In this document: positions 1,382-52,861 of the stretch, in pieces
Layout: every line of letters begins with the position of its first letter
Numbering within the stretch: position 1 is the stretch's first letter
Assembly: GCF_964355755.1 (NCBI RefSeq)
Contig: NC_092675.1
Coordinates: 18,262,912 to 18,326,911, forward strand
Direction of reading: 5' to 3'
Length of the DNA stretch: 64,000 nucleotides
Source: Antedon mediterranea
Taxonomy: Eukaryota; Animalia; Echinodermata
Made by a program: the position numbers and the translations under genes
Notes under the pieces: model-generated
Database searches by the model: none
What the model saw: only the letters and a program-made list of their open reading frames with translations
What the model was told of the DNA's origin: nothing

Positions 1382-1480
1382 GTCCCAAAGGTCCTAAAGG
1401 TGATACGGGAAATATTGGTAAACCAGGAGATCCAGGTGTAAAGGGAAGAAGAGGGAAAAAAGGAGCATCTGGCATACCAG
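1382..1480 (+). CDS. Collagen exon (G)[32 protein letters not shown], phase 1-1
   Basis: ttttacag|...ataccag|gtgag; 99 bp. Confidence 0.9.
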
Positions 1481-13400: not shown

Positions 13401-16400
13401 ATTATTTATTTTACTTGATCAACATCATTTTTCTTTTATTTTTGGTGTTTATAATCAAATTATGCTGTCGTTTGTCCTGTGTTTGCTTGTTTGCTTGTTT
13501 GTTTGTTTGCTTGGGTATAAGCCTGGAAATTTGATCCTTTAATTTTAAATTGGCCAGTTAAAATATGAATGTCCTTGTGTTGCTAAATCTTGCAAAAAGA
13601 TCTGTCCATGTTTATAAAAAATATGACATCACTAAGGAAAAGATAATATTCTTGTTTTTTATTTGCCGTTTAAAAGGAAATAATTGCGCATGATTTGGTA
13701 ATTACAAATTTGATAATTTAATGTTTTTAAATGATAGCAATGCATATTAATGTTATCAATAATGCAATATTCCAATAATTTTCGTTAAAACTATTTTTTT
13801 TACAGCTTTAAAGTGTAAATTAGAAATACTCGCTTTAAACATCAACAAATCATTATTTTATTAGTAAAAAGGTTCATCTGGATCACTGTATAGTATATTA
13901 AATAGTAAATTTTCTTTTGGATGATCCAAAGTCGAATAAAATTCGTAAACTTACGTTTTTTACTCTAGCTTTCGCTGGTCAATGACGCAGCTAAATCATG
14001 AGTGATTCTCTGTGACTTGGACTTGTTACCATTAGATCTCGTATATGATATAGCGCCAAAAGGTATGTTGACGACATATTAGCTCTCATTCCAGAAGGAT
14101 CAGCGGAACCTCTTAACTCACACTTAAACACAATTGACAAAACAGGTAACTGAGCATATGTCTAACAATACATTACCTTTCTTAGACATCATAATTACAC
14201 TGAACAATGGAGACCTGACGACGACAGTTTACAGAAAAAAGACCCACACAGACCAATAATTAAATTTTCACTCCTGCCATCCATTGGAACATAAGTTAAG
14301 TGTGGTTAACACTCTGGTTGACAGATGTGAAAAAGTTGTCACGAAAAAGCATATATAGGAGAAACAGCCAGAACCTTATCCACAAGGATAAAAGAACACA
14401 AAGCAGATTTCACTTCACATTGTACAGGGATCCTAACACGTTCAGCCAGAAATTCAGCTTCAGAAATTGTTCACAACTCAGCCATCACCGATCACATGAC
14501 CACTCACACTCATTTACCAAATTGGAACGTAAAAATACTGGGCACAGAATCGTCATGGAAAGACAGGAAAATAAAAGAATCAATAAAAATAAGAAAACAT
14601 GGTAACACTATGAACAGAGACGACGGTGGTTTGGAACTCCCAAAATTGTACAACAACTTACTAAAGAGGAGGCACCGACAATCCCATTTGGGAAAACCTG
14701 AACGATCTATAGATGGCGCTATACCATATACGAGATCTAATGGTAACAAGTCCAAGTCACAGAGACTCACTCATGATTAAGCTGCGTCGTTGACCAGCGA
14801 AAGCTAAAGTAAAAAACGTAGGTTTACGAATTTTATTCGACTTTGGATCATCCAAAAGAAAATTTACTATTTAATATACAAATCATTATTATCGGAGTTT
14901 ATATTGTTTTATTTATTTGTTTTATTTCACCCATCAGCGAGTAACTCGCCAATTACAGGATGGATTTAATAATTGCTTATTAAAACTAAGTCTCATTTGA
15001 GGCTTTGGGAGTGGAGTTGAAAGTGTTACAACTCTGGCATTAGGTCAGGATTGAACCCCAGATCTCGGATCTTGCCAGATTACAAGGCAAGTTGTAGCAA
15101 GTTTCAAGTTTCAATTTATTTATCAAACACAAAAAGTAAAACAGGTGATAAAATAAGAAGCATTGTAAACGAAAAGAAGACCAATAAGAGCATAGCTTGT
15201 AACAGATGGTCACTACACGCTGTTACACCATCAAACTTTATGTGACAAAAAAATGTGATGTGCCCATACATAGATATGATGATGTCATATCACTACCATC
15301 TTTGGTCATATCACTACCATATTTGGGTACATCACACTTTTTTGTCAAACTGGTTTGATAGTGTAGACAGAGCTTTATATTCCTCATTTGACAGATTCTG
15401 AAGTGAAAAACAGTCACACACAGTCACACACAGTCAACACAGATTCCCTGCAGAATAAATGATGTGTTTATTAATTTAATATATGTCAATAATAATAATT
15501 TGTCAGTAGAAACAAAGAAGTAAATGCAACATGTTAAATTGTAAGATTAAGCGAACCATTACAATTGAATTAAATATGGGTTTCAATGAACTTATTTAAA
15601 CTATTAAAATAACATTATTTGAACATTTTTTTAAATAGGAAAAGGAAAAAATATAGTATGAATGACAAATCATTTTATTACTTCAAGTTCAAGTTCATTC
15701 ATGAAGATTTTGAAAGGAGATAAAAACATTATGGTCAGAAATCATTCCTAAAAATGGCATTGACTTGTCCTACTAATAGCACCTGCTGTGGCTATCTTCA
15801 TCAATTGCTTCTTTTATTTGATTCCCATGGTACTTCACAGCCCTTTCTATCTTTTTTCGTTTGTATTGTGACACAAATCCGAACCCTTTGAGACGCCTGT
15901 CTATTTCGTAGCACAAGAAACTCCTCGTGAATGACAACTCATTAACCAAATTAAACCCTTCTCCCTTCTATAGAAGCATTCAAAAACATAATTTAATTAT
16001 TACATTTTTAAAAATGTAATCCTATTTGTTTAGACATTTAATTTTTTAGTTATCTGTCAAATTAGATAATTGTGGTAAGTGTTTAAATTCGACAGTAGTT
16101 TGACTGCAGTGTTCAAACCTGTTTTGAAAATGTTTCAACATGTTCACAGGTCGCAATGTCAACTGAAGTATTTTCAATCATAATTGTATTGTTTTTAGCT
16201 AGTGACAAGTTGTTCTTGTGTAGCATCTTGCTGTCTACCCAAAGGATTCGCTATTCCCGTGATTCACAGGGTAACTTGATGCTACCAGAAGGGGGTTACT
16301 TCCCAGGAGATCTTGCCGGAACCTTTCTGTAAAAAAAATCTGAAATGACTCCTTTGGCGCTATTCTGTTGACAGAAACACTAATTATTTCTGTGAATTAA

Positions 16401-19400
16401 TTGAAAATTTGTTTGACTTGAAGTGTGTTATAGGCATGCATCTGTTGTAGTAATTATGTTAGAAAAAGAAGCATTTAATGAGACATACTATTTCAGAAGA
16501 AAAGTTTGTTAAACTTTGTTACATGCCAGCATTTTTATTATACTTAGGATTTAAAGCCCTATGTCTATTATGATGATATTTAATTGTGTACTTTAAAGTA
16601 GCCAAGTTTAGTACTAAATGTCATTTAGCCCTGCATCAATAAATTTAACCAATGGTTTTTATCCTGGTGGATATATATGTATGTCTTTTTCTATGTCTAC
16701 ATGTTGTACATTAGCAAAATGAAAGTTGATTGTCATATCTTTATTACTCTCTTGAAGTACTTCTATTGTGGAGAAAACTGTTATAATCTCATTTTCACTA
16801 TTTAAAAAAGATGTTTTTGGTCTTTTTTGTTTCAGTTTCTTTTACTTTGTGATTTCATTGAACTGAAAAAAAACTATGAAATGAAAGAGGATGCTTTTAA
16901 TAGCTTTTAGAAAGTTCATATTAGAGACAGGAATTTGTAGATTTGTGATGACTATTTTAAATGTCTTTATAACTTGAGTTATTAATTTAGTATCTGCACT
17001 ATACTTACTACTGCACATCCGCGTAAAAAAATCTTGACAAAGTTAGCAGAAATTTACAAGATGACAAGGACAAGATGTAATAATTGTTACTCATAGATCC
17101 AAAAGAATTAATGTAATTATATAAAAACGCATTTCTATGTTTAAAAGTAGAATATTTTAATCTTTTGATCTTGCCCTCACTCCATGAATTAGTGATACCC
17201 GTGTTTAGTGCATGTTTTTCTAATCTCTCTACTGATTTGTCGATGTACTATTCCCTTGGTTTACCCGCTTGCTAATTTTAGCAGATTATTGGGAAATCTC
17301 CTAGTTATAAGAGAGTCTAATCTTCTCCATTACATGTAACATATATCCTGACAAACATGGAAAACTTTCCTGATATTTCAATATCTAAGATAATAATTTT
17401 CGTATCTTGTAACACTCTTTGTCAATCACGAACGCATAATTTTACATGGAAATATTTAGGTTACAAACATTTTTCACTAATTGTATATTTCACTCTATTC
17501 AATATATATTTCTGTCAATCATACATTAATACATACAAACTGTGCTGCATTTTAAAATAAATTAACCATTGATCTTCTTGAGTCACAAGTTGTGTAAATG
17601 CTAGATGATCTGTAGGAACCAGACGGAGAAACATCCTCAGTCTAAACTTTATGTGGAAAAAAATGATATGACCATATATGGACATGATGATGTCATATCA
17701 CTACCATATTTGGCCATATCACTACCATATTTGGACACATGACACTTTTTTTGTCAAACTAGTTTGATAGAGTAAGCAGAGCAACATTATGCAAAGTAGC
17801 CCAGGTGGAGTGTTCAAACAAACCTCCCTTTTTTTACTGAAGCACCATTTTCAAACTAGCAGCAGATGTGATTGTAAATACAGTAGGCCTTGCTTGTGAA
17901 GATTTTATCCCCTTTTGTGGCAGCATGAACTGCCTGTAAAAACCTTGGTGACAAGTTTCTTGTGCTACATATTGTTTTGTTGGTGTTTGCGCATGTTATA
18001 TTGATATTTAGAAAAAAAATTATAATGAATCTTAATCTTTTAAAAAATTATGCCAAGTAGGCAAGTGGCATTTAAAAAGCAAAACAAACATTTGAATATA
18101 TTACATTACTGTTAAAGATAAAGACCTTGAAGTATCTTCCATGATTACGAAGTGATATGCCATTCCTATGGGAATATACATAGGAAGGGAATAATTTAAA
18201 AGGAAAATCGATGTTGGCCTATTGTTGAGTCATTTTAACACTATTGGATATTTTCTGTCATGAGGGGTTTAATTTTAAACAATTTTGATCGTAAGATCAA
18301 ATCTCTTTGCACATTTTATTTGTATCATCAAGTTTGGAAGTAACTATAATAGGCATTGAGAAGACAGTTATAAAGTTGGGGTGAAACTACAACAGACATT
18401 AGCGAAGACAGAATTATAGCGAATCATTTCCAAATTGAGTTAACTAGTGGCCATGGAATTTCAATGATTAAATTAAACAACCACAGCTCTGCCAAATATT
18501 TGTTTTTTGTAATATATAAATTTACAACAAAAGCATAATACACCCATCTGTATGAAAATATTGATTTTTGAAAAAAAAAAATTGGAAAAGGATAGCCACA
18601 AATCAACACTTCTGTGTATAATTAACATTAATATTACCTCTGACATGTCACTTGAATAATATGAATTTTTTTCAACCAAGGTTTATACTTCAAGTTGTAA
18701 TTTCATCAAATCATAACCAAATTGAGAAATACAAAATGACATGATAATTTTCTACTACTGTAATTCTAAAAAATTTTAGCAAAAAATAACGTCCTGATCA
18801 ATTCAATATCTGTCCAAAAATAAAACTTTTTTTCCTTGGTATATTCCCTACAGATTTCAAATCTGCAGGGTTTTCATGATTCATTTGTCTGCGGTTCCGC
18901 ATGGATTAATTTGTGCAGGCCTCTGTAAAACATGGCTTCAATCCATGTGACTGGCTCGAGAAATTTTGTTGGAACCTGATGGAGGCCTAGTTTTGATATG
19001 TTTTAACAGTAGGTCTGTGTGCTACTGTTCTTTTCCTAGCTGTTATAGTGACCATGTGCAAACTAAATAACACCATATCCTAAGAGCAACTGTTCAATGA
19101 AAGGAACTAAATTATGTTTTTTGTCTTTTTTTTTTTGAATAAAATATGTTGTGACACAGTACAGTAATGAAACAATGAAAGAAAATCAAACCTACTCGTT
19201 AAAAAAATATATTATATTTTCGACAAATCTTCTGTAGAAAATAATTAGTAATGTTATAAATGTTAATAATTTGTGAAGAAAATCATTTGAACCATTGATA
19301 TCACACACTGTTTATTCCTAGTTTTCATAAAGTTAATAATAATTGGATCAATGGAGACCTGGAAAGATCGGTGTTGTATAGACTAGAGAGTGAAAGTGAA

Positions 19401-22400
19401 AAGGAAACCGAACTAGCATGCTATAGGCATGGGTTCGATCCAGTCTACTATATTGATTGTATCCTAGGTAAGATGCTTTATCCTCATCGTCCATTGGATG
19501 GGATTTAAAGCAGTTGGTCTTGTGTAGATACATTGAATGTTCGTTCAAAGAACCTACACTATTCGGAAAGAGCAGGAGATCGTCTCTTGGTGTGATAATC
19601 ATATGAGTATGCGCTGCACTGTTAACTGTCATTGGTTCGTAGAGGGCCTAATCCGGATTTCCTCAGTTTTCAGTTAAACTTGAGGATGATAATAATACCT
19701 TTATCTAATATTTTTAGCTGTAAAACCATGACAGTTTTTATCTGTTCAAATTTCAGGGGAGAATTCAAGAGCGTTCCAGCTGACCCAGACCCCTTTTAAA
19801 TTTCACAAATTTTAATGCAAAAAATAGGATATAAAATTAAGTTCAGCACTTCATTTCTCTACTTCTGGACTTTAGACACTCCCCCTGCTATTTCAACATC
19901 CTGGATCTGCCACTGAATGTTTTAATGTACATTCCTTTTCCCTAAAATGTTTTGCAAAACATTCTTTCACTAAACATTGATAATAGCTTGCATTATATTT
20001 CATACCCAATTTCATAGTCAATTAGGTAAAGGTAGACGTACCCTGTCTCAGAGACACTTGGGTCCTGCTTTGACAGAGCTTTTGTTAAATGGTTGAAGGC
20101 TGTTCATGTTCTAGTCAAATTAATGTCAAACTGTCATTCCCCATGAGCCCAGTTTGTGGCAAGTTCACTGAATAGTAATGTTCTACAAATTTGTTTATCT
20201 TTTTACATACCAGGTACACATTTTTACACACCTTTTAGTCACTGTGGAATTAAAGATATATTGTCTTCCTGAAAAAATAATTTAAAAAAAACGTTATTTG
20301 TTGAATTGGCCATTTTTAAGAATCATTCACTTTGAACAATAATTTGATTTTAAAAATCTGATTCTCCTCAATTCTGTTGAAGTACTGGTTATTTGATAGA
20401 AATGTGTTTTTAAAATGCTCTTTAACAATTTACCAGACTTTATTTATACTTAGTAAATAATATATAACACCTAACTAAACTACTATATATTTAAGTAATA
20501 TTGGATACCGGTTTATCTTTTTATTGGCAGAAAGCTCAGTGCAATAGGACAGTACAATGCATAGGTTTACCAGGAGCACCAGGCAAACCTGGTATGGTTG
20601 TAAGTATAGCTTTATGAATGATCTTTTTATATTAAGAAAATTATTGTTAAAATTGTTTGAGATTTTAATGTACTAAAGAGGTTGTAAAGCATGATAATTA
20701 GGCATATTGGACATTATGTATACTAAAAAGAAAGAGAGAAAACTAATAATAAATAAAAAAAAAATCTCTATTTAATGATGTCTTTAACTTTCCTTCTTTT
20801 AGGGTTCAAGAGGTTCCAGAGGATTCCCAGGTTTTCCGGTTTGTGCATCCTTCCAGACATTCTCAATCATACGCAGCAAACTTTTTACTATATACTACCC
20901 TTTTTTGACTTGCATGTCGTTCTTTATAAATTCTATTTAGTATGTATGAAATATAGTACCCATAAAAATGTTCCAGGTGTTTAATTCAGAGAGAGTTTTA
21001 AATAAATAAATATAAGTGTTGACTGATCTCTTAAAATGAAACACGATTCTGCTTTTGTTGTTTAAAGAAATGTTGAACTGATTTTAAGTGTTTGCATTAG
21101 ATAGCATTTATCATCTATATGTATTTTAAGTTGTTGGTTTTCTGATGCCTTTACATTTAAAATCTTTAACATGTGTTGTATTCTTTTATTTATTGTTCAT
21201 TATAAAATTATTTATTGTTTTTTTGTCTTTTTTCAGGGTCCAATAGGCGGAGATGTAAGTAAATATTTCTAGATATTTTATTTAAAATTCGAGTAGCCTC
21301 TTCATTCAAAAGTGAGGAAAGTGACAAAAATAGAGAGTAAAACTGTGATATTTGTTGATGTATGACTAGGCACTGCTGTGACTATTTGTTTGAGATTAAG
21401 CTCAGATTGTGTTGAGTCCAATTCATGAACATATCCACCATGTATTCAGTACAAAATTATGTGAAAATCTTCTATATGATTTACAGTAGTAGCCTACTCC
21501 TACTTGAATGCAAATACAAATAATTTATTGTTATTAACTGCTATTTATTATATCCATTCCTAATAACTTGTTTTTCTTTTATCTTGTAGGGTCCTCCAGG
21601 ATTTCCAGGGTCTATCGGATTACCAGTAAGTACAGTATTTAACATTCATTTTATATTTATGTATTTATATTTTCTAATTCTTAATTAACTAATTAATTTT
21701 GTAATTTTTATGTTAAATTGGATCTATCAATTAAGCCAATTTTATGTTACCAAACAATACTCACAGTAGTTATATTAACTTTGTAAAAAGAAACATTATA
21801 GAACAAAATTATTGGTATACATTCAAATACTAATTGAATGATTGTTAAATCTATTAACCTGCCCTGAAGTAAAAAAATGATTTCAATAATAGATTGTGTG
21901 ATTAGATGTTTAGTTTAAATAGTTTGTATACTATTTGAAATGTACTGATATTTGTGTGTAGAGCCAGGGCCGCTAACTAGATGTTTGGAGAGGACGTTTC
22001 TTATTTCTTGTCTTATTTCCCTCGTGATCAAAGCTGTCATGAATATAGACCTTAATAATCTCTGTATGATGACAAGTAACATAAACCAATGCCCTAACTG
22101 TTTTCAGAAATTGAACAAAACATGCTTGGGAAAATTGAAATAATCTGCTGATTTCCACTACAAAACGTTGAATAATAGAACAGGACACAAATGAAAAAGT
22201 AATGACATAGGATTAAATAAAATTTGAAAAAAAATAAAAAAAGTATCTTGTTGTTGATCATTTTACTATTTCTGTTTCTCCTCCTCACAGGGAAAAGATG
22301 GTATAAATGGATCGGCTGGTGAAATGGGTGAAAAGGGTCCAAAGGTAAATTTATATTTTTATCTGTAGGCCAGAAATACCTTGAATATACCTTGAACCGT

Positions 22401-25400
22401 AGGACTTTGAGAACTTTGGCCCTCCATTGTCATCAATGAGAACTCCTCAGTAGCATATGGGCGAAACTTGAGATGGTGGTCAGACCATAACTTTGCAATG
22501 CCGGTTTTGAACTTGTTAATCGTTGGTTCCGTCACAATATGGTTTGGTAGCGAGTTCCAATCATTTATAACTCTAACTGCATATGCTCTTTTTCTAATGT
22601 TTTTATTATATTTGGATTTCGATACCTTAAAAACATTCCCCCTGGTTTGCTGGTATTTAGATCTTTGAAATAATTTTCCTGCCTCGATATTATCAAATTT
22701 ATGAAAGATTTTAAAAGTTTGAATTAAATCCATTCTTTTCTTTCTAAAGGCTAAGATAGGCAAATCCAATAACTTCAATCTCTCTGCATATGGCTTACTC
22801 CTCAATTCAGACACTAACCTTGTGGATCTCTGTTGGACTTTTTCTAAAGGATTGTAATCTTTCTGACACAGTGGTGTCCATAAACTACCACCATATTCCA
22901 ATATAGGTCTGATCATAGATTTGTACAGATACATATAACTCATACTATCAAGAAATGTATCTTCACAGATTTTTAAACGAAAAGAAAGATTAAAATACAT
23001 GTTATTAATCTGGATTTTTTATGATTTTATGGTATTCTATTTCATATTATATCTTTTTAAGATTATATATTTTAACAATTAAGTTTTATTTACCATAGGG
23101 AGACAAAGGAGAAGATGGAAAATCAGGTCCTATGGTAAGCATAACACTACAATATAATAGAACTCTTAGCAGGCAATATCTGTATAAAAATAATAATGGT
23201 TGACATTTATATAGCCTTACAAATGTTTCTGAACACTTTACATCATACTTATATAGCTCTTTATACAAGTGTCAAAGTTCAGTTGACTAAATATATAATA
23301 ACTTTCATCACCCTTAATAATAAGATGATAGAAAAAAATTAGTGTTATAAAACTTACTTTAAAATGAATCAAAAGAGGTTGAAAGTTTGACAAATTGTTG
23401 GAGATCTTTCCAAAAAGAGGATAAAAAAATAGCAATGATTTGACAAGAAGATGGAACACATCGAGGCACAAGTTGGGTGATATTAGATGTATGAGAAAAG
23501 AATAAAGCATTAAATCAAAGAATCTCTACATGTCGAACTGCCACCAAGAGGCGCACATTTGTCTGTCAACAACAATAATAAATAATAAATGGTTTTGTTT
23601 TTACAAGTGATGATTAACATTTACATCATTTACATTAATAGGGACCTCCTGGCTCACTTGAGCTTCAGTTAAAGGGTGAACCTGGTGAGCCTGGCCTACC
23701 TGGACTCAAGGGAGACCTAGGTATTGGAAAGATGGGCCCACCTGGAAAACCAGGTGCACCAGGATTACAAGTAAGTATTATTTAATTTCCTAGGATCTGT
23801 ATTATCATTAAATCATGTAATGCTTTTCTAGGTTCAATGTGTTTACATTACAGAGTAGCTTTTGCTGTTCTTTCCTACTTCTGTTTCTATAAATAATATT
23901 TATATTTAATGATCCAGCACTCGGAAACAAATAGAAGAATTGGAAATAATGCTAATATATAATAATAAATGATTAGTTTTGCCTCAGCTGATATTTTGAT
24001 ATTATGTACCAAACATTTCTATGTTGATGTGTGCCTATATGATGTTGTGGTTTGTGGATTAGTCCATTATTGTAAAAGAATATGCAAAGAACTTTTTGTA
24101 TTATACAAGTGAGAGCTAGGAGAGCACAGATTGTTGTCGGTTTATCCAGGTAAATATTCTGTATCTTTAGTTTATATGCTAAAATTTAAATAAATAAATA
24201 TAATATCCTTAATAACTATTAAAATTCTATTTTACAGGGATCAGATGGAGCACCAGGAAAGCCAGTAAGTGTAGAATATTTTAGACTTATTAAATATCAT
24301 TGCATGTAATACTAGTGATATGCTAGGAAGAAAAGAATCATTATCAAAAGACAGTAATATAAAATAAATATCTTGGATTGACCATAGAAAGCACCTCAAT
24401 CTCAACACGTTTCTCCCTCCCCCATGCATTTAAACATTTAGAAGAAAAATAGACCTAAAATATCAATTTATTTATTATTGTATAAATATATAAATAATAA
24501 ATGCGGTACATTTCATTTCGAAATCTGAGCTGCACTGACGAGATCTAATACGATCGAAACAGTACTGTCTGCAGATTGGATAAATAATAAATGTATAAAT
24601 TTAACCAGGGCCCGGGTATACTCGATCTCATTGGCATGTATGAAGTAAGGATTTAATTAGCACCATTTCAACAGAACTAATTGTTCTTTATTTGGATTGT
24701 TAATTGATAACTTATTAAATACATCAATTATCAATTTGTAATATTAATGAATCATATTAACTTTAATTAACATCCTTCCTTATTGTATAGAACTTTTGAG
24801 GAGGTCACCACACAGGGCTCTCTCCTTTTTTCAAAGATTAGATTTAATATGTTGAAAGTGGTCATTATCACCCTTTAGTTCAATTATATTGTTTGTTAGA
24901 TCCAGATGTATTACTGTCTTATTTTAATGCTACTTATGATATGCACATGATGATTGAAAGTGAATGATACTATCTGCATTATCTTGTTGAAATGCTACAA
25001 TTTCTGCTTGTTGTCAAATTCATTAGCATTATTTTTTTTGCACGTTATACACATGCTTTATATGCTTGTAGCAAAAGGCAAATCTTTATAATTATACTTG
25101 GAGTATTGGGTCTCATTGGCATATAAAGGTTTTCTGATGCTTATGAGATATTTTATGATGATATAATATTCAAGCAATATTGGTACTATTAAAAAGTTGT
25201 GATTGGTAAATTACTTGCGGTGCACTTACGTTGCATTCAAGTAGTCCAATCAAGCTTTTAACTCCAGTTAAATTAATTTGTAATTTGCTCCAAGAGTCAC
25301 TATACAAAATAGTACTGCTATTTTACATTACATTAGTCACAAAGTCACGTTTGAAAAAGTTCACCATAGCATGATGCAAAGTTTGCTTAGAAACTGCATT

Positions 25401-26867
25401 TCTATATTGCTGCATGTGTGTTATATTTTTTATTGCACCATTCTCTACAGGGTGTTATAGGGCAACCAGGCCTCAATGGTAGTCCGGGTGTTTCCGGTCC
25501 AAAAGGAGAGCAAGGCTCTGTTGGTTTTATTGGTTATCCAGGCCCACAGGGACAACCCGGTCAAAAAGGGGATGTTGGTCTACCAGGTGAAGGTTTACCT
25601 GGTGTTCAAGGACCACCAGGAGGACAAGGACCACCAGGAGAGCAAGGGCCACAAGGAGAGAAAGGGCTGCAAGGAGATCAAGGATATGTTGGCAAACCAG
25701 GTCCATCTGGAGGTTTACCTGGCCCGATGGGTCCACCTGGAGAACAAGGATTACCTGGTGAGCAAGGATTACCTGGAATCAGTGGTCCACCTGGTGATAG
25801 AGGGCTGCCTGGTATGGGAGAAGCAGGTCCGGCTGGAGAACCTGGATTGTCTGGTGAACCTGGCCTACCAGGAATGATAGGTACACCTGGAGAACAGGGC
25901 TTACCTGGACCACAAGGACCAGCTGGTGACATAGGACCACAAGGACCAGCTGGTGAAATAGGTCAAACTGGACCCCAAGGTGATGCTGGCCAACCAGGTT
26001 TGAAAGGAGAACCGGGAATAAAGGGTGAAGTGGGCCAAACAGGGGAGGTGGGAGTTCCAGGAGAAAATGGAGAAAAGGTAGGGATTGGGCCAAGAGCTTG
26101 TTAGATTGATTTAAATATACCTTTCATCACCTGCACATGCATGGTTTTACAGCACTCAATTTAAAGCTGATAAATTTATTTAAAAAAAGTTTGTAATTTG
26201 CTCGTAACTTGAAGCATGCTTTCCATGTTATTTTTTTTTTTCAAAACAAATTATTCATATCTTTGTAAATTCTGAATGTTATGGAGTTATGTAGAAAATT
26301 ACAATAATAATAACTTACAGAATGCACTTAAAGATGTATTGTCCCCCAAAAACATGAAAAATGAAGATTAATTAAATCAGACTTTGAATATGTTATTTTG
26401 TAGTTTGAATAAAGTTAATCACTTCCATAGAAAAAAAAAAAAAAATGTTTTTACCTATAAATTGAGAAAATAAATAGTTAAATTCAACCAAAAACCCACT
26501 GGCTGGCAGCCAATTGGGCCATTTTTTGCTTTAAATTACAGTTTTTTCAGGTAAATACATTTTTTGGTCAAAGTGGATAACTATTATGTTACATTAAAAT
26601 GGCATATTCAACAAAAATGTTGTTAAGAATTATTTTTTCAGGGGGACAATACATCTTTAAATTAAATGAACATTTTAATACATAAAATTTATGAATACTA
26701 AACCACTTTTAATTTTCTACACAACTGCGTATATATTTATATTATTGGAGGATAAATAATATTAATTTTAGTTTTATTTTATAATTCTTATATTATGGAA
26801 TATGCATCACTATGTGTGTGTCCACAAATACTTTATTTATTGATTTCCTGCATACACTGTTTTGATA

Positions 26868-29900: not shown

Positions 29901-32900
29901 AGTCAAGTTTAGAAGTGTGTACAGATGTTATAATGGAACGTAATTGCTGAGTGTGGTCAAAAAGCTGATGTAGTATACAGTATACAAATGTCATTTGACA
30001 TTTCAATATTTATAAAAGAAAAGCAGTTCAATAAACCTATGCCACCAGTAGGATGCTAAGACATTCACATTACCTAAGGCAACCTTATCAAAACAGGTGC
30101 ATATGTAAACCTAATCACAAAATGGACAACTCATTGTTTTCATTAACATCTATCTTTCAAATAACCTTTATTTCAACATTTTAAATAGATTAAATACACA
30201 TTATTTTGCACGCAGCACAATGCACTCACTATATTATACACACAATTGCATTCCAAAAACTCTATGCATGAAAATGTTTTTATTTTCTCATTTCAATTTT
30301 GCCAGAGTTAGACTTATGAATTATTTCTGAAAGAAAATAATTCATAGAAAATGTATTAATTAACAAAACAAAATTATTCTACTATAAAACTATTTTACTT
30401 TAATAAAACAAAACTATTGTTTTCTTTGAAAAGATTATATTTATTTTTAAACTTGTCTATCTAATTGGGCATTGCATAAAATTTGTACCATCTCATTTGA
30501 AAACTTTTGTAGGCTTAAAAAATTGGCATTCTTTCTATATCACTTATGAATTCAAATAAAAAATTGTTTAAACCCTGACTTTATTATTACAATCATGGAT
30601 TTTAATATTCCTTTTAAGGAACTTACATTTTATTTCACCAAATTTATAAGAAAAAATAATAATTAACTATAAAAAACATAAAATAAAATATCTAATTGTT
30701 AAAATATAGGTCTGTCTCTGGCATATAGTATTCATTTTTCATTTTTAACTGCCTTAGGGTCAAAGGGGAGTACCAGGTCGTCCAGGAGGACCAGGTCAAA
30801 TAGGCCGCAGAGGAAGACGGGTATGTCATGTAAAAAAGGGAGGGAAAGATTCATAATATTTTTGTTCATTTTTTTCATTTAATTCATATTCGCTTTGAAT
30901 GAGTGGATTGCAATCTCATATTGACAATCAACACACGCATTGATATTAGAATTCATATTTTGTTGCATTTCATATACATTGATGTACAGTACTATGTTTA
31001 TTCACATAAAGATATACATCTTTGTTATTGTTTAACACAACACATTATCTTATACTATGGTTCTGATCACCTTTTAAACTAAGATTAGGAATAATTAACC
31101 AATATGATTCCTGCTTTAAGGAATGTTCTCCTTCCTTGATATACTGTTTTTTTATGTGTGTGGCTGTTGTCCTATTCTGAAATTGTGTGTGTGTTTTAGA
31201 GTTTTTTGAGTTAAATTATTGTGATGTTTTGATGTAAGAGATAAAATAAGGTACCGGGTGTCGTGTATCGTCGTAGACAAATTAATAAGTACGTTGAGAT
31301 GAGTATAATAATGAACGTATTTAATGAAACCAACTAGTAGTCATGAACAATAGTATAGAACGTTTTGTAGGCTAAACCTCGTCAGAGCATATGCGCAGTA
31401 CGCATATATATATGTGCGCGTGCATATACTACACTCCTCCTTTCTTATTTTAACGTTAACATTATATCAATAAGCACAATAAACTTTCGTTAATTATTTT
31501 GTTAATCAAATAGGTTAATCATCGTGATTAAATTACTGCTTCTATAGTTCCAGATAGTTCTTATTTGGTTCCTCATAATAATTAACAAATGTGAGTAATT
31601 CTCACCATTATAATTTTGTGTAAAAACATGAACAACATAACTTTAACGTTCATAATAATAACATTGTTCACAAGTTCTATATCTCTTCGATAAGTCGTGT
31701 TGGCTTCCTTCGAAGTCGCGTGGAGCGTCGTGGAATAACCTCAGGCGATGAAGACAATCTATGTTCCTCTTCAACCGGTTGGTTGGTGGATGTTTGCTCT
31801 TTGTTCGCAATCGTTTCGCTCGCAATCGTTATTGGTACTGTCTGTTTAATCTTGTGTTCCAACTCGCTATGTGAAGTAGGGGTTTTACTCGCGTAAGCGT
31901 CCGCGTCTGTCGCTTTCAACTGGTCAATGTGTCTTTTCCACACTCGGCCATCCTCAACACTAATTACGTATGATTTTGGTGCGGTACGTTCTATCACGGT
32001 ACCTGGCCACCACTTTCCCTCTTGTCGGAAATCTTTCACTAATACCATTTCACCTGGGTAAAATTCTCGTAGATCTTTCGTTTTGTCGTGATGAAGCTTC
32101 TGATCACTCTGCTTGTTAAGTACCTTGTTTTCTGTACTGGGATGTAAAAGTGATACTCGCGTTCTTAACTCACGGCCCATGAATAACTTCGCTGGCGTTT
32201 GTCCCGTAGTTGCGTGTTTTGTTGTGCGATACGATAAAAGAAATCTGTCCAAACATTGTTGGAAATCCTTCCCATTAGCTCGGCTTGCCGCTAACGATCT
32301 TTTGAAAGATTGAACCATTCGTTCTGCTGCTCCGTTGCTTGCGGCGTGATAAGGTGCAACCTTTACATGTTTCACCCCGTTTTGCTTTAAGAAGAATTCA
32401 AATTCGTCGCTAACAAACTGAGGTCCATTATCGCTTACAAGTTGAACAGGCAATCCGTATCTACTGAACAACTCTCTCATCGCTTTGATGGTCGCTGCAC
32501 TCGTCGTACTGTTCATCTGAACGACTTCTGGCCATTTCGAATATGAGTCAACCACTACTAGATAATCTCGTTTATCTTTCTGCGCATAGTCAATATGTAT
32601 TCGTGTCCAAGGCTGATTTGGCCAGATCCAGGGCATCATTGGTGCTACGCTTGGTCGACTTTGTGTTTGGTGACATGCTTGACATTGCTTCACCAATCGT
32701 TCAATGTCGGAATCTATCTGGGGCCACCAGACATGACTTCGCGCAATCTCTTTCATACGCACGATTCCGGGGTGAGCACAATGAAGCTCCTCCAGAACTG
32801 CCCCTCTGAGTTTCGGTGGAATCACTACCCTGTATCCCCACAGCAAACAGTCCTGTTCTACACTCAATTCGTCTCTTCGGTGTAGGAATGGTTTTAGATC

Positions 32901-35900
32901 GTCGTCGTTTTCTGACTGCCATAAACCTGTCTGTACCATGTATAACACTTTGCTCAATAGCGGGTCTTTCCTGGTATGCTGTTGTACGTTCGTACTCGTG
33001 ACTGGCAAATTGTCTAATGTATGCCCCGCTATGTTATATACTGCATCGTCTTCCCGTCCTTCGTATGGCATTGGGAGACGTGAGAGTGCGTCGGCAATTA
33101 CGTTCTGTTTTCCAGGAATGAACTTTAAATCGTATTCGAACGCTGACAGCACGATTGCCCATCGCTGTAATCTCTGTTCTAAACCTTTGAAGTCCAAACA
33201 TGATGCTTAGGGCTTCCTTGTCTAGTTGTGCATAACCCTTTTCGTGTTTATGCAGGCTTCGCGATGCGTACGCGATCGGTGTTTTGATATTGTTCTCGTT
33301 TACGTGGCAAATGACTGCGCCAACTCCGTATGGTGATGCGTCCGTGTATAGTTCCAGTGGTTTTAATGGGTCATAATGCGTCAACATCATGTCTTCGCTA
33401 ATAATTCGCTTTACCGCGTTAAACGCTTTACTACAGTCGACAGTCCATGACCATGGTTTGCTTCCCAACAGCTCATTCAAAGGATGTATCATCGTCGATA
33501 ATCGTGGAATAAATGACGCGTGATAGTTAACTAGTCCTAGCCAGGATCTTAGTTCTGTTGCATTCTGTGGTGCTCGTGCATCCTTGATGGCTTTCACTTT
33601 ATCGTTTGTCGGTTGAATTCCTGCTGCTGATAGCTTACGTCCCATGTAGACTACTTCCTTTTGTACAAACGCGCATTTCTCAGCTTTCACTCTGAGACCA
33701 TACTTGTTAAATCTCTCAAATAGTTTCTCAAGATTACTAATATGCTCTTTATCAGACGCACCTGTAACAAGAACATCGTCCATGATCGCACATGTTCCTT
33801 TAAGTCCTGCTATCACCTGTTCTATGAATCGCTGCCATATGGCTGGACTGGACGAAATACCAAACGGTAACCTCGTGTATCGATATAATCCGCGATGCGT
33901 GTTGATCGTTACCAACTCTTGCGCCTCGTCTTCCAGTACTAACTGCTGGTACGCACATTTCAAATCAATCTTAGAGAATCGCTTTCCACCTCCCAACTTG
34001 GTGAAAACTTCCTCTGGGGTCGGAATTGGATATTGGTCGCAATTTAAACTCGGGTTGACTGTTACTTTATAATCTCCGCAGACACGTACCCTGCCATCGG
34101 CCTTTGGAATACATACCAATGGGGTTGCCCACTGACTAAAGTCTACCGGATAAATAACTCCTTCGTTTTGCATTCTGTCTAACTCTACCTCAACTGCGGA
34201 GCGTAGCGCAAATGGAACATTTCGAGCTTTGCAGAATTTTGGGATTGCGTTCACTTTTAGATGTAATGTCGCTTTGTGTCCCTGAACCGTACCTAATTCC
34301 GTTCGGAAAACTTCTGGGAACTTCCGTTTGAATGACTGACCGACATCGTTATCTATTTCTACCGAATTCTGAGCAAGCGATGGTGGAAATAATGACTTCC
34401 AGTCCAACTTAATCACTTCTAACCAGGTTCTTCCAAGCAAGGGTGGTGAGTTTCGTCGCTGTGTTCTCACTACTATCAGTGGGAGAACGTTACTCTGGCC
34501 CCTATAGTTCACGGTGACTTTAATTTCTCCTGCTATATCGAGCTTAGTACCTGTGTATGCGTGAAGTGTACGTTTTACTGACTTTAATGGTAGATGGCTA
34601 AGCTTGCTTTCGTAATCGTCAAAGCTAATTATCGATACTGCTGCGCCCGTATCTACTTCAAAATCAATATCTATATCATCAACTCGCATCTGTACCGTTA
34701 TTGGTGGTACCGAATTGTCCTGCTTAATGCCTACGCAAAACATTGTATCTACAAAATCGTCATTACCTTCGTCGTAATCCGGTGCTTCTACTTGCTTGAT
34801 GGATTTAGGTTTATATTGTTTTGTTGATTTACTCGACTGCCTGCATTCTGATTTTAGGTGTCCTTGTTTGTTGCATTTAAAGCATGTAGCGTTTTTGTAT
34901 TTACACGTATCTCTTGTATGATTGTTCATACCACAGCGGTCACATTTCTGCGTTCGTGTTTGTTTTGACGCTTGATACGTTTTCGTAGACTTCCTGCTGT
35001 TAGACGTAACGTGGTTGATTGGCTTGTCCACATCGTGCGACATACTTTTCATATTCGCTGTTGCTGCCTCCGAGGCTATGGCTATGTCTGTTGCTTCCTT
35101 GAACGTATGGTTCTTTGTCAATAATTTCTTTTGGATGCTCTGACTTATTAGTCCACATACGAACTGATCACGCAGTGCGTTTTCCAATGCCTCTCCTTCA
35201 AAACCACAATGTATCGCCTTTTTCTTTAGATGGGATACAAATTGAGAAATAGTCTGTCCCGGTGTCTGTTTTACATTTCTGAATATAAATCGTTCAGAAA
35301 TCGTTATTCGAGTAGGTTTGTAATGCTCTTTGAGCTTGGTTGTGAGCGTATCGTACGATTTTGTACTTGGTTTATCAGGAAAACACAAATCTCGTATCGT
35401 TGTGTATCCAGTCTCTCCTAAACTACTCAATAATATCGCTCTTTTCTTACCTCCGTCATTGATATCTAATGCCACAAAATATTGTTCCAGCCTGTCCACA
35501 TACGTATCTATGTCTCCATCCTGGACGTTGAATTCCTCGAATAGAATTCTGGTATTAGCCGCTGCCATTACCGCGCTTCGCTCTGTACGTTCAGGGCGCT
35601 CAGAATCGTTATTAGCCTGTGCGGTTCCTTGGTTACGGTTGCCGTTGTTGGAAAATCAAAAACTGCTAGCCTAGGCTTTAGTTTTATAATATTATTATAC
35701 TAACTTCCGTTTCTCTCTATGTAAATGTGCCTGTATCCTCGTCGCCAGTGTCGTGTATCGTCGTAGACAAATTAATAAGTACGTTGAGATGAGTATAATA
35801 ATGAACGTATTTAATGAAACCAACTAGTAGTCATGAACAATAGTATAGAACGTTTTGTAGGCTAAACCTCGTCAGAGCATATGCGCAGTACGCATATATA

Positions 35901-38900
35901 TATGTGCGCGTGCATATACTACACTGAAAGTGGTGGCCATCAAGGATGCACGAGCACCACAGAATGCAACAGAACTAAGATCCTGGCTAGGACTAGTTAA
36001 CTATCACGCGTCATTTATTCCACGATTATCGACGATGATACATCCTTTGAATGAAACCAACTAGTAGTCATGAACAATAGTATAGAACGTTTTGTAGGCT
36101 AAACCTCGTCAGAGCATATGCGCAGTACGCATATATATATGTGCGCGTGCATATACTACACTGGGAGTAGTGATTATATAAAGAATGATTTATCGTATAT
36201 TAAAACGGTTTCTGTAGTCATACAGCTCAAAATAAATCATTTAGCAAAACTTAATTTTGTTTAAATTAAGTCAGTTTCAAAATGCTCTGAGAAAAAAGAA
36301 GTGCTTGATAAATAAAGCTAAAGTTTTTCTGAACTATCTTGACTTAAGCAGAAAGTAAATGCCAACTCAGATGCTGTTAGTTCTGATCATTTTGTCATAA
36401 TAGATATTTTCTGGTTTAGATTTCTGTATATATTTAAAAAGTGTATGATATGGATTTAAATTTACTAGAAAAAAGTTATATTATTTAAAAGTTTGAATCA
36501 AAATTTATCAAAATGTTTGTCCAATTTGTATAGGGTGATAAAGGTGAACAAGGCATACAGGGTGAATCTGGACCAGAAGGCAGACCAGGTGTAGTTGGTC
36601 CACCTGGAATGGGGTTGAAGGGTCAACAAGGAGATAGAGTAAGTTGGATTTCTTCATAGCAATTTATTTCTAAATTTATTATTTATCAACAATCAGTTTT
36701 GGTAGATTTACATGTTTTTATTTCTATTTGAAGGGATTACCAGGTGACATGGGAGTTCCAGGACAAGCAGGACAACAGGTGAGATTTTAATTATGTAAAA
36801 TATTTCCAATTAAATATTCAAATTATTCAGCTTGTTTTTATGTTAAAAATCAAAACGGGAAATCAAATTTACATAAGACCTACTAATTAAAAGTAATTTA
36901 AATGTATTCTTATTTTTTTAGGGTGAAAAGGGTGAAGTTGGACCAAAGGGTTTTACAGTAAGTATATGACTTTTTTTACTGCTTCAGTTATTTTCACTCC
37001 TTTAGTTTTTTCACTCCTTTCTTTTAAGTCTAATTAGTATCTGTAGTATAAACATACCAACACACATTCATAGTGTGGGTATAGATCAGAAGGTCTTTTA
37101 CTGCAGTAATTGCATACCAACATGCATCAATAGTCCATGTTAGTGTGGGTATAGATCAGAAGGTCTTTTACTGCAGTAATTGCATACCAACACGCATCAA
37201 TAGTCCATGTTAGTGTGGGTATAGACAAGAAGGTCTGTTGCTGCAGTAATTACATACCAACACGCATCTATAGTCCATTTTAGTGTGGGTATAGACAAGA
37301 AGGTCTGTTGCTGCAGTACTTACATACCAACACGCATCAATAGTCCATTTTAGTGTGGGTATAGACAAGGAGGTCTGTTGCTGCAGTAATTACATACCAA
37401 CACGCATCAATAGTCCATTTTAGTGTGGGTATAGACAAGGAGGTCTGTTGCTGCAGTAATTACATACCAACACGCATCAATAGTCCATTTTAGTGTGGGT
37501 ATAGACAAGGAGGTCTGTTGCTGCAGTGATACCTTGTGCATGTAGTAGAATTCAGTGACAATCATGTGCAGCACTGCATTTTGCTCATTACTGTATTCCA
37601 ATTACACCACACCTGAGAAGAATGCTGTGCACAAATGCATGCCTAGTCACAATGTTAGGCAATCTAGTTTACGTGTAAACTCGCCTTGAATCACCTTACT
37701 TATCAAAGTAGTGTTCACATACAACAAAACGTCATCTGCGATGAAAAACTCAATTTTAAATTTATTATTTATATGTACTGCTCTAAAATATAAACAGCAG
37801 AAAACATTTATAACAAGTGGTCATATGATATATACTGTTATTTCTTAATAAAGATTACCTTATTTGGTTTAGAATTACCTTATTTGATCCAATTTAGCCA
37901 TGATACCAGTTTCAATTATCATTTTCAAAACAAATTATTGAAGAATACCATTTGTATTTGTTTCATCACATGAATTGCTACATGGAAACTGCTTTAAAAC
38001 CAATATTTGAGAATGAGACCGAAATTGATTGGAGTTTTAAAACCATGTATAAAAATCGGTTCTTATGTGGACCAGTTCTGCTGGCAAAATGAAAATACCT
38101 TTCAAAATACGGTATTTAAATCCGATTCTGTATTCTTTTTGCTCAGCAGAAACAGGCCTTAAAGCTCTGTCTACACTATCAAACTTTATGTGACAACAAA
38201 ATGTGATGTGCCCAAATATGGATATGATGATGTCCTATCAATACCATATTTGGGCACATCACACTTGTTTTGATAGTGTAGACAGAGCTTTATAGTTTAT
38301 ATGAGACAATAGACATAGATTTGTGCATGTTGCAGTTTCTATTTTTCACCACTTTGCTTGTTGTGTTCACCTTCTTTTAGGGAGAAATAGTGACGTCAAT
38401 GGGCAAGGAAGTAAGTCATTTTACTAGATCTCTTTATATCTTTTCTTTATGTTATTGTGGTTCTTTCACTATTGTTTTCTGTGAAATACACTTTTATAAA
38501 TTGTTACCTTATGTTTGCTATACTTGAACAACTTTTTGCCCGTTTTTACTAAAAATAAATATTACTGGTTAATGATGTTTATCCATTCATCATGATTTAT
38601 TATAAAATAGTTGTTTTAGCATGTCTTAATTTGAAATTTAATCAATAATAATATACTGTATATATTTAATGATAATTTTTAAGATTAATTTTTTATGGCA
38701 GTATCATTCAACTATTCAGATAATTAATTGTGGCTATCAAGTGTGGTGTTTTTTTAAAAGAATTATAGATAGTAATATGGACCTACCATTAATAGTAGCA
38801 AAACATTAGTTAGCCTTTCAACCTCAGTAGTTCCATAATTGCATATCTACCCCTGTATTAAAGAAAGTAAAGGCCTTTTGATGCATAGTTGCGTATACAA

Positions 38901-41900
38901 ATTCATAGGGCTTTACAAGTTCATTAGAGCCTTCCAATCAGTGATGTAGCCACAAGAAATAAAGTGGTCCGGTTTTCGCAAGAAAAGGAAACAATCTCTC
39001 TTCAAGCCACTGGGTTGTCAAAGGCCTCTGTGAAAAGTGGCCAGGTTGAAACTTTACCAACCATACTGGTGGCTATAGCCCTGTCAATCGGTCTTCCAAT
39101 AGGTAGCTTTTTGATCCAATAGCATCATCCCTGAGGGATGTTAAATGACAGTAGGGGGAACTTTTTAGATAAAATAAAATATTGGTAGGACTTTATAGTT
39201 TATTTGTGATTTACAGTAGCTTTCATTTACAACAATGTTATGCTATATAAAATTGTTATATAGAAATGTTACTGCATTTTGCTCACAAAGCATGTTTTAG
39301 TTTGAGCAGTTATGATGCAATGGCTCTGCACACTACACTTGCACCAGTATACATCCAATTTTTTATTTTAAAAATGCCTTTACAAATTTTAATCGTATTT
39401 ATTTAATAAGTGGATTTATTAATTAATTGGAAATATTTTGTATTTGTTAAACAGATACCTGGTCCAAGAGGCCCACCTGGCATACCTGTGAGTATTATTT
39501 CATTTAAATTAATTAATATATATATTATTATTACTATCTACACCCTCTATTCACCACGCCTTATGCCTCTAATGTTTTATTTCTTTTATTCCTGTCCACT
39601 CAGGCAGCGCTTGCCTGATATCTATCTATCTTTGTCCAAGTACCTTCACTTGCACTAATGAAGGACTAGTGTTGCCCGAAAGCTCTGGTAACTTTTCTGG
39701 CTGTTTTACTTTATCGTTTGATTTAGCTTTTCGCTTTTTTTGTATCTCCATTGAGATCCAGCCACTGATACCCACAACATTGTTATTTTTTCACTATTTT
39801 GCCTTTGGATTTATATATATATTATTAAATACAATTTACAATTTACAAATTAATTTACATTTTATTTCTTTATAATCTAATATATTGTAACAAGGATATT
39901 TTAAACAAAAACATAATATTTTGCATTGTTTTGTTTATCTAGGGTCCACCAGGTCCCAAGGGAGATGCAGGAAGCCAAGGCCTTATTGGTCCTCAGGTGA
40001 GAAAGATTACTGTATAATGATAATGTATGATAATAAATAATAATATCTTAGATTTATAAAGCGCCTAATGTGTGAAACCTCTATAAGTGCTGTACATATT
40101 ATTACCCCGGTCATTTTTGATCAAGTGATAGAGATATCAATTCCTTTGCTCTTCTATACTTACTAACAATCTAAAAGATAATCATTGAAAATGAATTATA
40201 GTATCTTTTACATAAACATTATGTTGACTTTATTTTGTTTGTGTTTAGGGGTATGGAGTAAAAGGTGACAAGGGTGACATTGGTCCACAAGGGTATAAGG
40301 TAAAGTCAATTATTTTGTTTTCCTCTTTAATTCACCATTCTTTAATATAATTGATTGATTTGATTCTACAACCACATTTCTCACATGCAGTAGAGTAAAT
40401 GGTTAACAAAATGACTCTTTGTTCCAACAGGGTCAGATTGGAGTCCGTGGACTTACAGGTATTCAGGGCAAAGACGGAGAACTAGGAAAACCGGTAATTA
40501 ACATGGATTGACATTATGTTTTTGGGCTGTAGCTAAAATAAAAAAAATTAATTTTTAAAAGTTATATTGTCCAAGATTAATACAGAGAGAATAAAATACT
40601 ACATATTGCCCAGTGTCTATATTCACCATTCACACTTAGGCTAAAGAAAACATGTGCCGTTAACATTTAAACATTCTCCTATTTAAATGAGTAGCACTTA
40701 AATGAAATCGATAAATATTTATTGACTTAAGTGAAATATTTAAGGGAATTTTAGGTGTTTATGCTATATTGTTTGCATAAGAAATGTTCACCATGTGAGA
40801 TTAGAGTGAATTCTTCCAATCAAAGAAAAGATATTTTATTCACGTTACTTGTATCTTTAGGGTGTACCAGGACCAAGGGGTCCTGAAGGACCACCTGGAA
40901 TGGACGGAATCCAGGGTGAAAAAGGAATGAAAGTAAGTTTGTTTATTAAAATTCAATTCAATAATTCAAACATTTAAGTAAATCTGTCTCACTACTACAC
41001 ATTCACTTTGTTGTTTTTCTGATACACCAATATTTCAACAGTTTCAACTTAACTGAGTGATCAATAATTTGTAATGGTTGATTAATAATTTACCTTCTTA
41101 GTAAGATAAATAAATAACTTAACTACAGTAGCATTTAGTGCATTGCCAAAAGAACAGTTATTATGTTGAAAAAGTTTCAAGCTAAAAGGAAAAAGAATGT
41201 AGCAATATTGAGGGCAGTCATATAATATCTTCAGTATTTTAAAAATGGGTATAATTTACTTTATTCCAACAGGGGGGAGAAGGCTTTGTGGGGAAACCGG
41301 TAAGCACTTTACTACATTTACATGCTAACAAACAAAATATAATATTATTAGTGCATGTGAGATGTATTACTTAACTAAAAACTATTGTTTAGTATCTATT
41401 ATTATAACTAAACTTAAAATATTGTAAATATTGAACTAACAATTATATCTTACAGTTTTATATAGATATGAATAAAATAATATAAATCTCATAGTTTTGC
41501 TTACTATAATAATACTGTAATAATAATATTGTAATATTAAAAGCATAGTAAACAATGTGTATGACTGAATGATTTTCAAGATTTCTTGAATAATTATGTT
41601 AAACATTACTGAGAATAGAGAGGTTTCGCAATCTTACGAATACGATAACGAAAACGGATACGTCATGCACTCGTATTCGTTTTCGTAAGCCATAAAAAAA
41701 TCTGTTTCGCATGGCAACGAAATATCGAGGCACGTCCAAAATATGACTGCGGTAAATTTGAGCGAAGCGCAGGTACGTGTTGCTTGGTGCTTGGCTGCCT
41801 AGGGTAACATCAAAGCTAGTGAGGACTTTAAAAACTGCTATTTATCTAAATTGACCTGGCATTTTAGTAAATTACTTTAGTAAATTACTTTCAATAAATC

Positions 41901-44035: not shown

Positions 44036-44191
44036 TGATTACTGGTAAGTATTTTGTACAGTAGTAAATATATTTGTTTATTAGGTATACAGGTCTCTCT
44101 CCAAAGAAAGATGTTTAGGCAGATGTTATTGTTAGTTGATTGTTAACATTGATTGATCTAAATGTTTGTTAGGACCATACATATATATATA

Positions 44192-44361
44192 TGCACTGAA
44201 GAGCTAGTGTTGCCCGAAAGCTCTGCTAACTTTCCTGGCTGTTTTACTTTATCGTTTTGATTTAGCTTTTTTAGCTTTTTTTTTCGTACAGTATTTCCAT
44301 TGAGATCCAGCCACTGATACCAACAGCATTGTCATTTTTTCAGTAATTTGCCTTTGGATTT
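44192..44361 (+). mobile_element. Penelope-like pLTR/retrozyme remnant with minimal hammerhead motif (copy 2), between (TA)n tracts
   Basis: tgca-ctgaaga-gctagtgttgccc-gaaa-gctc-tgc at 44192-44227. Confidence 0.68.
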
Positions 44362-44466
44362 ATATATATATATATATATATATATACAGGACTAGTGCTG
44401 TTCCGCCGTACCACGCTGAGAATGTTAAAGAGTCGCTATCCAATCGAGTTTGAACAATACCATGAA

Positions 44467-46339: not shown

Positions 46340-46646
46340 AATATACATTTGTTAAAGTTTAATTCACCTACTAAATTGCTATGTTAATGATCAATATTTT
46401 AATATACATTTGTTAAAGTTTAATTCACCTACTAAATTACTATGTTAATGATCAATATTTTAATATACATTTGTTAAAGTTTAATTCACCTACTAAATTA
46501 CTATGTTAATGATCAATATTTTAATATACATTTTTTAAAGTTTAATTCACCTACTAAATTACTATGTTAATGATCAATATTTTAATATACATTTTTTAAA
46601 GTTTAATTCACCTACTAAATTGCTATGTTAATGATCAATATTTTAA
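46340..46646. repeat. 61-bp minisatellite, 5 copies, in probable collagen 3'UTR
   Basis: aatatacatt recurs at 46340, 46401, 46462, 46523, 46584. Confidence 0.95.
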
Positions 46647-52700: not shown

Positions 52701-52861
52701 GCTCCCTTCGTGGAAGGCTTCTCTTCCGTCGGCGGTAGGGCTAAATCAGGTTCAGGCTTACGAGAATTTTCACCATACACATTTGAATGTACTACAACGC
52801 TCTGTTCTTCATTTATTGAAGAACATGCCGTGGTACTATTAGTCTCCATTGTTTCATTCAA
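49763..52861 (-). CDS. Divergent forkhead-box (winged-helix) transcription factor, ~756 aa; exons 52861-51724, 51585-51414, 51190-51136, 50668-49763
   Basis: Phase-compatible GT-AG junctions assemble RPSQGLVQQVLHVFKICKKTEMQPCEVYHELT|KLYPLYTTYHGQKKKSWM|SSVRHALTHPAFKSRRADENKNESHRKGCFWSIND, followed by basic PRRRRKVQRK. This matches forkhead landmarks (P..Y, W.NSIRHNLS, F, KG.YW) and is flanked by Q/M/S-rich low-complexity regions. Confidence 0.8.

Follow-up and report, generated by a model that had tools for sequence, protein, structure and literature searches.

How did a complete hammerhead ribozyme motif come to lie, in sense orientation, in the intron of a collagen gene, and does it affect that gene? 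The window, i.e. the whole 64,000-nucleotide stretch of DNA analyzed here, contains such a motif between two copies of a 14-bp direct repeat, and a preliminary description of it offered two readings: either a minimal mobile ribozyme unit with a target-site duplication (TSD), or a retained intronic ribozyme that would cut the collagen pre-mRNA. By combining the window with assembled public sequencing runs and with related metagenome loci, we arrive at another reading, to which we give a probability of roughly 0.78, namely that the 76-bp insert with its 14-bp TSD is the truncated 3' end of a likely non-LTR retrozyme, likely inserted by target-primed reverse transcription (TPRT) of the Penelope type.

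The hammerhead motif

Judged by its sequence, the motif at 24523-24581 is a complete type I hammerhead, predicted to be a self-cutting RNA. All hammerhead parts and both repeat copies in the preliminary description were recovered at their coordinates (Table 1); the numbering used for them, e.g. C3, A9 and U1.7, is that of hammerheads in general. The core CUGANGA, the GAAA, an NUH triplet, three helices and an open helix I are all present, as in type I hammerheads, and a strict type I descriptor matched once in the window, compared to zero matches in 150 order-3 Markov windows. The best Rfam alignment, to Hammerhead_HH9, reached 25.9 bits (E 6.9e-4, for 1.2 kb) but stayed under the gathering score of 52, and the scan of the window gave no match at gathering level. 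The relatives described below also fell under their gathering scores: among three loci scanned only L015 matched, at 26.5 against 34. The Rfam gathering threshold is insensitive for this hammerhead lineage.

Table 1. Features of the insert, the host intron and a Penelope-like remnant, in window coordinates
Feature	Position	Strand	Remarks
Left TSD copy	24490..24503	+	14 bp; present once at the empty site
Insert, 3' end of the high-copy element with the hammerhead	24504..24579	+	76 bp; 43% GC
Element-body remnant 5' of the hammerhead	24504..24522	+	
Stem I, 5' strand	24523..24534	+	core CTGCA at 24530-34; distal part with uncertain register
Stem I, TGCA/TGCA pairing	24531-34/24570-73	+	
Catalytic core CUGACGA	24535..24541	+	C3-A9
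Stem II	24542..24555	+	GAUC/GAUC (24542-45/24552-55) with 6-nt loop UAAUAC
Core GAAA	24556..24559	+	G12-A15.1
Stem III palindrome	24559..24568	+	ACAGTACTGT = ACAGUACUGU
GUC triplet	24567..24569	+	predicted cut 3' of 24569, placed by hammerhead consensus
Stem I, 3' strand	24570..24581	+	includes U1.7 (24576); fixed 3' end of the element here
Right TSD copy	24580..24593	+	first 3-7 bases matched by many other element copies too
Exon before the host intron	24238-24264	+	27 bp
Host intron	24265..25450	+	1,186 nt; GT..AG joint 24264 to 25451 in X6
Exon after the host intron	25451-26077	+	627 bp
Penelope-like remnant	13893-14879		broken RT end and GIY-YIG-like frame (14331-14780, +)

The insertion and its empty site

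The sequence of the 14-mer is in itself weak evidence for a TSD, and a call made from it alone was rejected: the 14-mer is AT-rich, has a third exact copy at 23578 and five one-mismatch copies elsewhere, and chance alone produces an average of 0.25 cases of a 14-mer repeated within 200 nt in each simulated window. The question was decided by orthologous sequence. The region is present in ten public runs, four of which (X1, X5, X6 and X8) were compared. X5 and X8 are two samples, from one study, of organism B, the sister of organism A. X1 is probably the source sample of the window and hence not independent, and X6 is an organism A sample from another study. One contig each in X5 and X8 joins 24489 to 24580, thereby skipping 90 nt, with 14 letters fitting both sides and a shorter side of 255 letters. 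The orthologous intron of organism B (33 substitutions in 957 aligned positions in the X5 record, ~3.4%) is empty and has the 14-mer once, which makes the 76 bp an insertion and the repeat its TSD, as the first of the two initial readings had held.

Both junctions are present in X1, where no empty-site joint was found, and the 3' junction is present in X6 (24538-24663). The locus is a filled/empty pair with exact junctions. Parsimony favors a gain in organism A over a precise loss in organism B; recombination between the repeats could conceivably have removed the insert there, which would alter the date of the insertion, not its origin. Insert and target overlap by TG at the 5' junction and by ATA at the 3' junction. 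The TG (24502-24503), the last two bases of the TSD, also fits the element and makes a 2-nt microhomology at the truncated 5' end, and the right-hand TSD bases common to other copies likely reflect priming microhomology or target preference.

A high-copy family with a fixed 3' end

The motif belongs to a highly repeated element. Summed contig depth in the bin 24524-24607, which is not a copy number, was 61,043 against 52 in X1, 44,531 against 55 in X5 and 92,670 against 130 in X8, i.e. 700-1,200 times the flanks. X6, whose identity as RNA is a guess, had a summed depth of 4,878 over the motif in its assembled contigs, a sign of presence and no more. The element is abundant in both organisms, including organism B, which lacks this copy. 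Both high copy number and tandem arrays had been raised in the preliminary description; the former is in line with the very high repeat depth of the assembled runs, while the conserved downstream continuation expected of a tandem array was not seen among the 24 of 236 loose-end rows covered.

Other copies match from 24502 onwards and continue upstream with a shared consensus, which includes a TATATA motif, ends in ..TATTGTGCCAGTTC and spans the 30 nt over which the family is known in that direction. The loose ends before 24502 agree at 0.77-0.88 in all four runs, and further copies begin at 24505, 24510, 24515 and 24521. Downstream, the copies stop at 24582-24586, with loose ends behind 24582, 24583 and 24586, and are followed by unrelated AT-rich DNA, with an agreement of 0.52-0.64 in multi-read rows. 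Since other copies share sequence upstream of 24502 and end near 24582-24586, the copy in the collagen intron is what truncation from the 5' side has left of a longer high-copy element, i.e. its 3' end. Neither a second copy of the element nor its upstream motif was found within the window (two three-mismatch matches, against 1.08 expected), and a scan of viral contigs gave no match. A smaller repeat peak lies in the preceding intron, at 24088-24154, with depths of 678-3,274 and shared loose ends before 24119.

Related metagenome loci

A pattern scan of metagenome contigs returned at least 119 related loci. Stems I and III are common to them, the invariance of the stem I core and stem III columns being by construction as the pattern fixed these, whereas stem II differs yet stays paired. 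In an alignment of 17 rows, including 16 of the at least 119 loci picked for variety, 96% of the cells pair and three pairs change on both sides, with the caveat that related sequences can beat a shuffle control without structure. One stem II pair is GC in eight rows, UA in six and AU in one.

Among the loci listed, 108 of 119 form one family with a tandem period of 241-243 nt. Tandem units within the 150-450 bp expected of metazoan retrozymes, carrying a hammerhead each, were observed in the listed relatives L017 (apparently the same locus as L030 and L091) and L101; the insert's own family is known over the 30 nt upstream. When duplicates and loci with less than 30 nt of flank are excluded, 77 of 82 listed members of the main family end 6-17 nt past the cut site, and the next 20 nt after those ends are 87% AT, against a background of 62%. 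The 5' extents of 41 evaluable loci are spread between 40 and 302 nt; they were measured with one copy as reference and are hence underestimates for variant subfamilies. Direct repeats of at least 8 nt were found at 11 of 37 junctions, compared to 7 of 135 shifted controls, several of the 11 being microsatellite. Short-read assemblies break in arrays, so that isolated ends are over-represented in these counts. Two further configurations were noted. In L026, L038, L064, L065 and L105, short repeats with GTTA, TATG or TAGA units start inside the element's last bases, and such repeat-ended insertions suggest slippage or microsatellite targeting at priming. In L056 (188-350) and L094, two hammerhead copies lie tail to tail, about 80 nt apart.

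The remaining 11 listed loci include L015 and L116, which agree with the window at 47 and 48 of 53 positions in the hammerhead, respectively. In their family the body extends for 270 nt or more and shows homology to the tandem family (68% over 62 nt, E 2e-5). Similarity between 24502-24525 and the closest listed relatives is marginal, as 33 and 60 of 1,000 shuffles were as good (seven loci tried). Lastly, four hammerhead sequence strings were absent from the running text of full-text articles, a search that leaves aside figures and supplements.

Comparison with known elements

Like metazoan non-LTR retrozymes, the insert's family has a canonical type I hammerhead, a GC content below 50% and a high copy number, with PLEs (Penelope-like elements) in the same genome. 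The 14-bp TSD of the insert also agrees with the TSDs of more than 4 bp described for these elements (PMC7229834; 10.64898/2026.07.22.740005). Coral retrozymes are described as canonical type I hammerheads in 220-245-bp repeats with TSDs of more than 4 bp (PMC7229834), and the 241-243-bp tandem units of the relatives fall within this size range; by unit length, the 241-bp family may correspond to a published coral retrozyme. The copy in the window differs from metazoan retrozymes in its extent, a truncated end of 76 bp with a single ribozyme and neither monomer nor array, and in a stem II and loop II of its own. Retrozymes of this group are further characterized by a full element that lacks ORF, LTR, PBS and PPT, and by expression as linear and circular RNAs of unit length. 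The insert's family probably works like the metazoan non-LTR retrozymes and belongs there, and the best reading of the source element is a new family of this group. The kind of element is already known, and there is no sign of a host function.

The main rival to the retrozyme reading is that the insert is the clipped 3' pseudo-LTR (pLTR) of an autonomous PLE with a canonical hammerhead, which we regard as unlikely. Similarities to endonuclease-positive (EN+) PLEs are numerous (PMC4209133, PMC8557442, PMC3846280): their pLTR hammerheads are of type I, lie near the 3' end and have a palindromic helix III, and the elements themselves show 5' truncation, microhomology junctions, short TSDs and AT-rich or microsatellite targets. 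The signature predicted for a PLE end, i.e. an AT-rich target, a TSD of about 8-14 bp and 5' truncation, is common to retrozymes and therefore not diagnostic; PLE TSDs of 8-10 bp are on record (PMC3846280). Canonical hammerheads do occur in Hydra and other PLEs (PMC8557442), but metazoan PLE hammerheads are described as mostly minimal and without a real helix III (PMC4209133, PMC8557442, PMC3846280), unlike the motif studied here with its three to four pairs. The PLE-type hammerheads in the window itself (44196, 39655 and 14770) are likewise minimal, with a 2-nt stem III. The TATATA in the upstream consensus would suit a pLTR, as pLTRs carry TATA-like boxes (PMC3846280), and so would the missing tandem continuation in the loose-end rows covered. 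Against this, the family body of the closest listed relatives is homologous to the 241-243-bp tandem repeat, tblastn with the PLE protein of the window found no PLE protein in the 119 loci listed, and a search for an ORF or pLTR match in the insert's family, over the 76-bp copy and the 30 nt upstream, was negative. Retrozymes have been argued to derive from pLTRs (10.64898/2026.07.22.740005), and the two readings therefore grade into each other.

It is far less probable that a minimal mobile ribozyme of 76-90 nt spreads on its own as a self-contained unit. Copies starting near 24505, 24510, 24515 and 24521 do indicate that very short inserts are common, and the TSD is clean, but the upstream consensus is one and the same in all four runs, the 5' starts are scattered, and related families among the loci listed grade in the same way up to full units. 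This reading is largely refuted: of the minimal mobile unit proposed initially, the mobility stands and the minimality does not.

Predicted fold and activity

Stem I had been drawn as a TGCA/TGCA helix extended by AATC/GATT around a TGAGC bulge. The TGCA/TGCA core holds, but the bulged form is one among several; ViennaRNA assigned it -4.4 kcal/mol, compared to -11.9 when the stem is extended with a single G.A mismatch, and a fifth pair, C24530-G24574, competes with the AATC/GATT helix. Stem II was predicted with a pair probability of 0.99. The fold had a z of -2.0 and its preferred form was without stem III, likewise in four out of four relatives; since stem III goes unpredicted in these too, ViennaRNA folding does not discriminate and was rejected as evidence either way.

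The contact between loop I and loop II is described as one of U1.7 with the terminal A of loop II (PMC11875169). U1.7 is present here and in 13 of 16 aligned relatives. Loop II, on the other hand, terminates in C, in contrast to the A of 14 of 16 aligned relatives, and stem I has five pairs plus G.A where six are canonical, which makes the fast, tertiary-stabilized layout suggested for this motif doubtful. The palindromic stem III could dimerize according to the model (self-dimer at -13.4 kcal/mol), with no second element copy nearby, within the window, as a partner, but its three to four pairs exceed the one to two of dimer-dependent hammerheads (PMC4209133). Owing to this pairing, and because a coral hammerhead cleaved as a monomer at a rate of about 0.8 per minute (PMC7229834), putative cleavage as a monomer appears plausible by analogy.

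Proposed mechanism of insertion

In the proposed course of events, a GIY-YIG endonuclease would nick AT-rich DNA, the nick would anneal via a few bases (ATA) to the element RNA some 10-13 nt downstream of the scissile bond, and reverse transcription would run back across the whole hammerhead. As the 3' junction is situated 3' of the scissile bond, a linear monomer ending at GUC would not have served as template; the template would rather carry an intact scissile bond, being either a re-ligated circle or an uncut multimer, and such a template fits the circular-RNA model. Synthesis would have stopped after 76 nt and been joined through the TG microhomology, and a staggered second cut of 14 bp would have given the duplication. 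With one ribozyme and no body, the resulting copy would not yield a monomer or circle.

PLEs are the likely donors of the insertion enzymes, a role that we infer, as the intron had no match to the PLE remnant of the window and no sequence link between the two was found, while remnants that we take to be LINE-like are also present there. TPRT is marked by a fixed 3' end, a ragged 5' end, microhomologies, an AT-rich target and a duplication. PLE examples of these marks are described in PMC3846280 and PMC8557442.

Furthermore, the insertions of three families that differ in stem II and body stop where stem I ends, ~6-17 nt beyond the scissile bond. We tentatively suggest, at somewhat less than even odds, that the hammerhead fold itself is the priming signal, such that the ribozyme determines where the PLE RT starts on ligated (circular) retrozyme RNA. 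If this is true, even the shortest truncated copy would deliver a whole sense-strand ribozyme into genes. The locus, filled and empty in sister organisms, is a natural pair for the host cost of such a new intronic ribozyme. The mobility of retrozymes has so far been deduced mostly from copy number and co-occurrence with PLEs; its mechanism is described as still open in 10.64898/2026.07.22.740005, and the main text of PMC7229834 mentions the TSD twice and truncation never.

The collagen gene

A collagen gene (Pfam PF01391, E 1.6e-33) hosts the hammerhead, and the two share their orientation; from the motif, the 5' splice site lies 305 nt upstream and the 627-bp exon 881 nt downstream. X6 contains a spliced joint across the host intron and also one contig that spans the cut site and reaches unique flank (32 and 94 letters, depth 4.6), which together give a weak hint that the insertion is tolerated, the reading of X6 as RNA being a guess, as none of the runs is listed as RNA, and sample S3 possibly heterozygous. 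Intron bins of X6 that lack coverage were disregarded. In human cells, introns cut by a hammerhead were spliced, whereas the faster HDV ribozyme blocked splicing (PMC2995048). Within the collagen pre-mRNA the insert is likely a passenger, whose putatively slow or partial cutting would mostly be tolerated by splicing.

As a single type I hammerhead in an intron, and by its best Rfam alignment, the motif resembles amniote HH9/HH10 (Rfam RF02275), which sit in introns of RECK and C10orf118 (PMC10761166) and are described as ultraconserved (PMC7761336). It differs from them in its 25.9 bits against the gathering score of 52, in being missing from the sister organism, and in being high-copy and TSD-flanked. 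The idea that it is, like these, a ribozyme retained by the host to regulate collagen through cutting of the pre-mRNA is the least credible of the readings: the sense orientation, the intact core, the HH9 match and the presence in two organism A samples (X1 and X6) speak for it, but the motif is one of very many copies, is missing from the orthologous intron at ~3.4% divergence, lies in an intron with an observed spliced product, and occupies an unremarkable site, given that ~44% of Xenopus tropicalis retrozyme copies overlap introns (10.64898/2026.07.22.740005) and that hammerhead-cut introns can still be spliced, as in the human cells mentioned above. Many copies together with an empty orthologous intron, here seen in two of two organism B samples (one study), is the combination that the preliminary description had set in advance as speaking against a host role, and the retained ribozyme is accordingly given up. 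The locus also allows a simple test of whether young sense-strand intronic hammerheads lower host mRNA.

Other elements in the window

The Penelope-like remnant, 10 kb from the insert, has 166-bp inverted ends (96%) and a 13-bp AT-rich flanking repeat, ACAAATCATTATT. Its GIY-YIG-like frame obtained an Atlas score of 0.95 with a family share of 11-17%, which we treat as a lead, and had no Pfam match. A minimal hammerhead-like motif occurs in both end copies, near 14770 (+) and 14000 (-), with A3/U8 in place of C3/G8, a possible core swap. Two short-repeat copies, at 44190-44371 and 39650-39822, are 87% alike and have a minimal PLE-type hammerhead at their start. Both are in sense orientation in collagen introns, the first inside a TA microsatellite, and both cores look damaged.

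An LTR element, which we take to be Ty3/gypsy-like, lies inside the collagen gene at 31258-35925 (-), with two identical 178-bp LTRs, an extra LTR piece at 35927-36172, and a pol that is split between two frames near 33034-33206. A collagen intron holds the remnant of an RT C-terminus, presumably LINE-like, at 22359-23018 (-), for which no Pfam match was found. Large exons at 49763-50764 (-) and 51410-52861 (-) probably belong to a forkhead gene (PF00250, partial, at E 6e-4 and below the cut-off), for which a protein search gave no homologue at near length. Upstream of the first collagen exons found, a GC-richer stretch at 19348-19700 bears what we presume to be a resemblance to a SINE. Tandem arrays with periods of 70 bp and 61 bp are located at 37071-37530 and 46340-46647, respectively.
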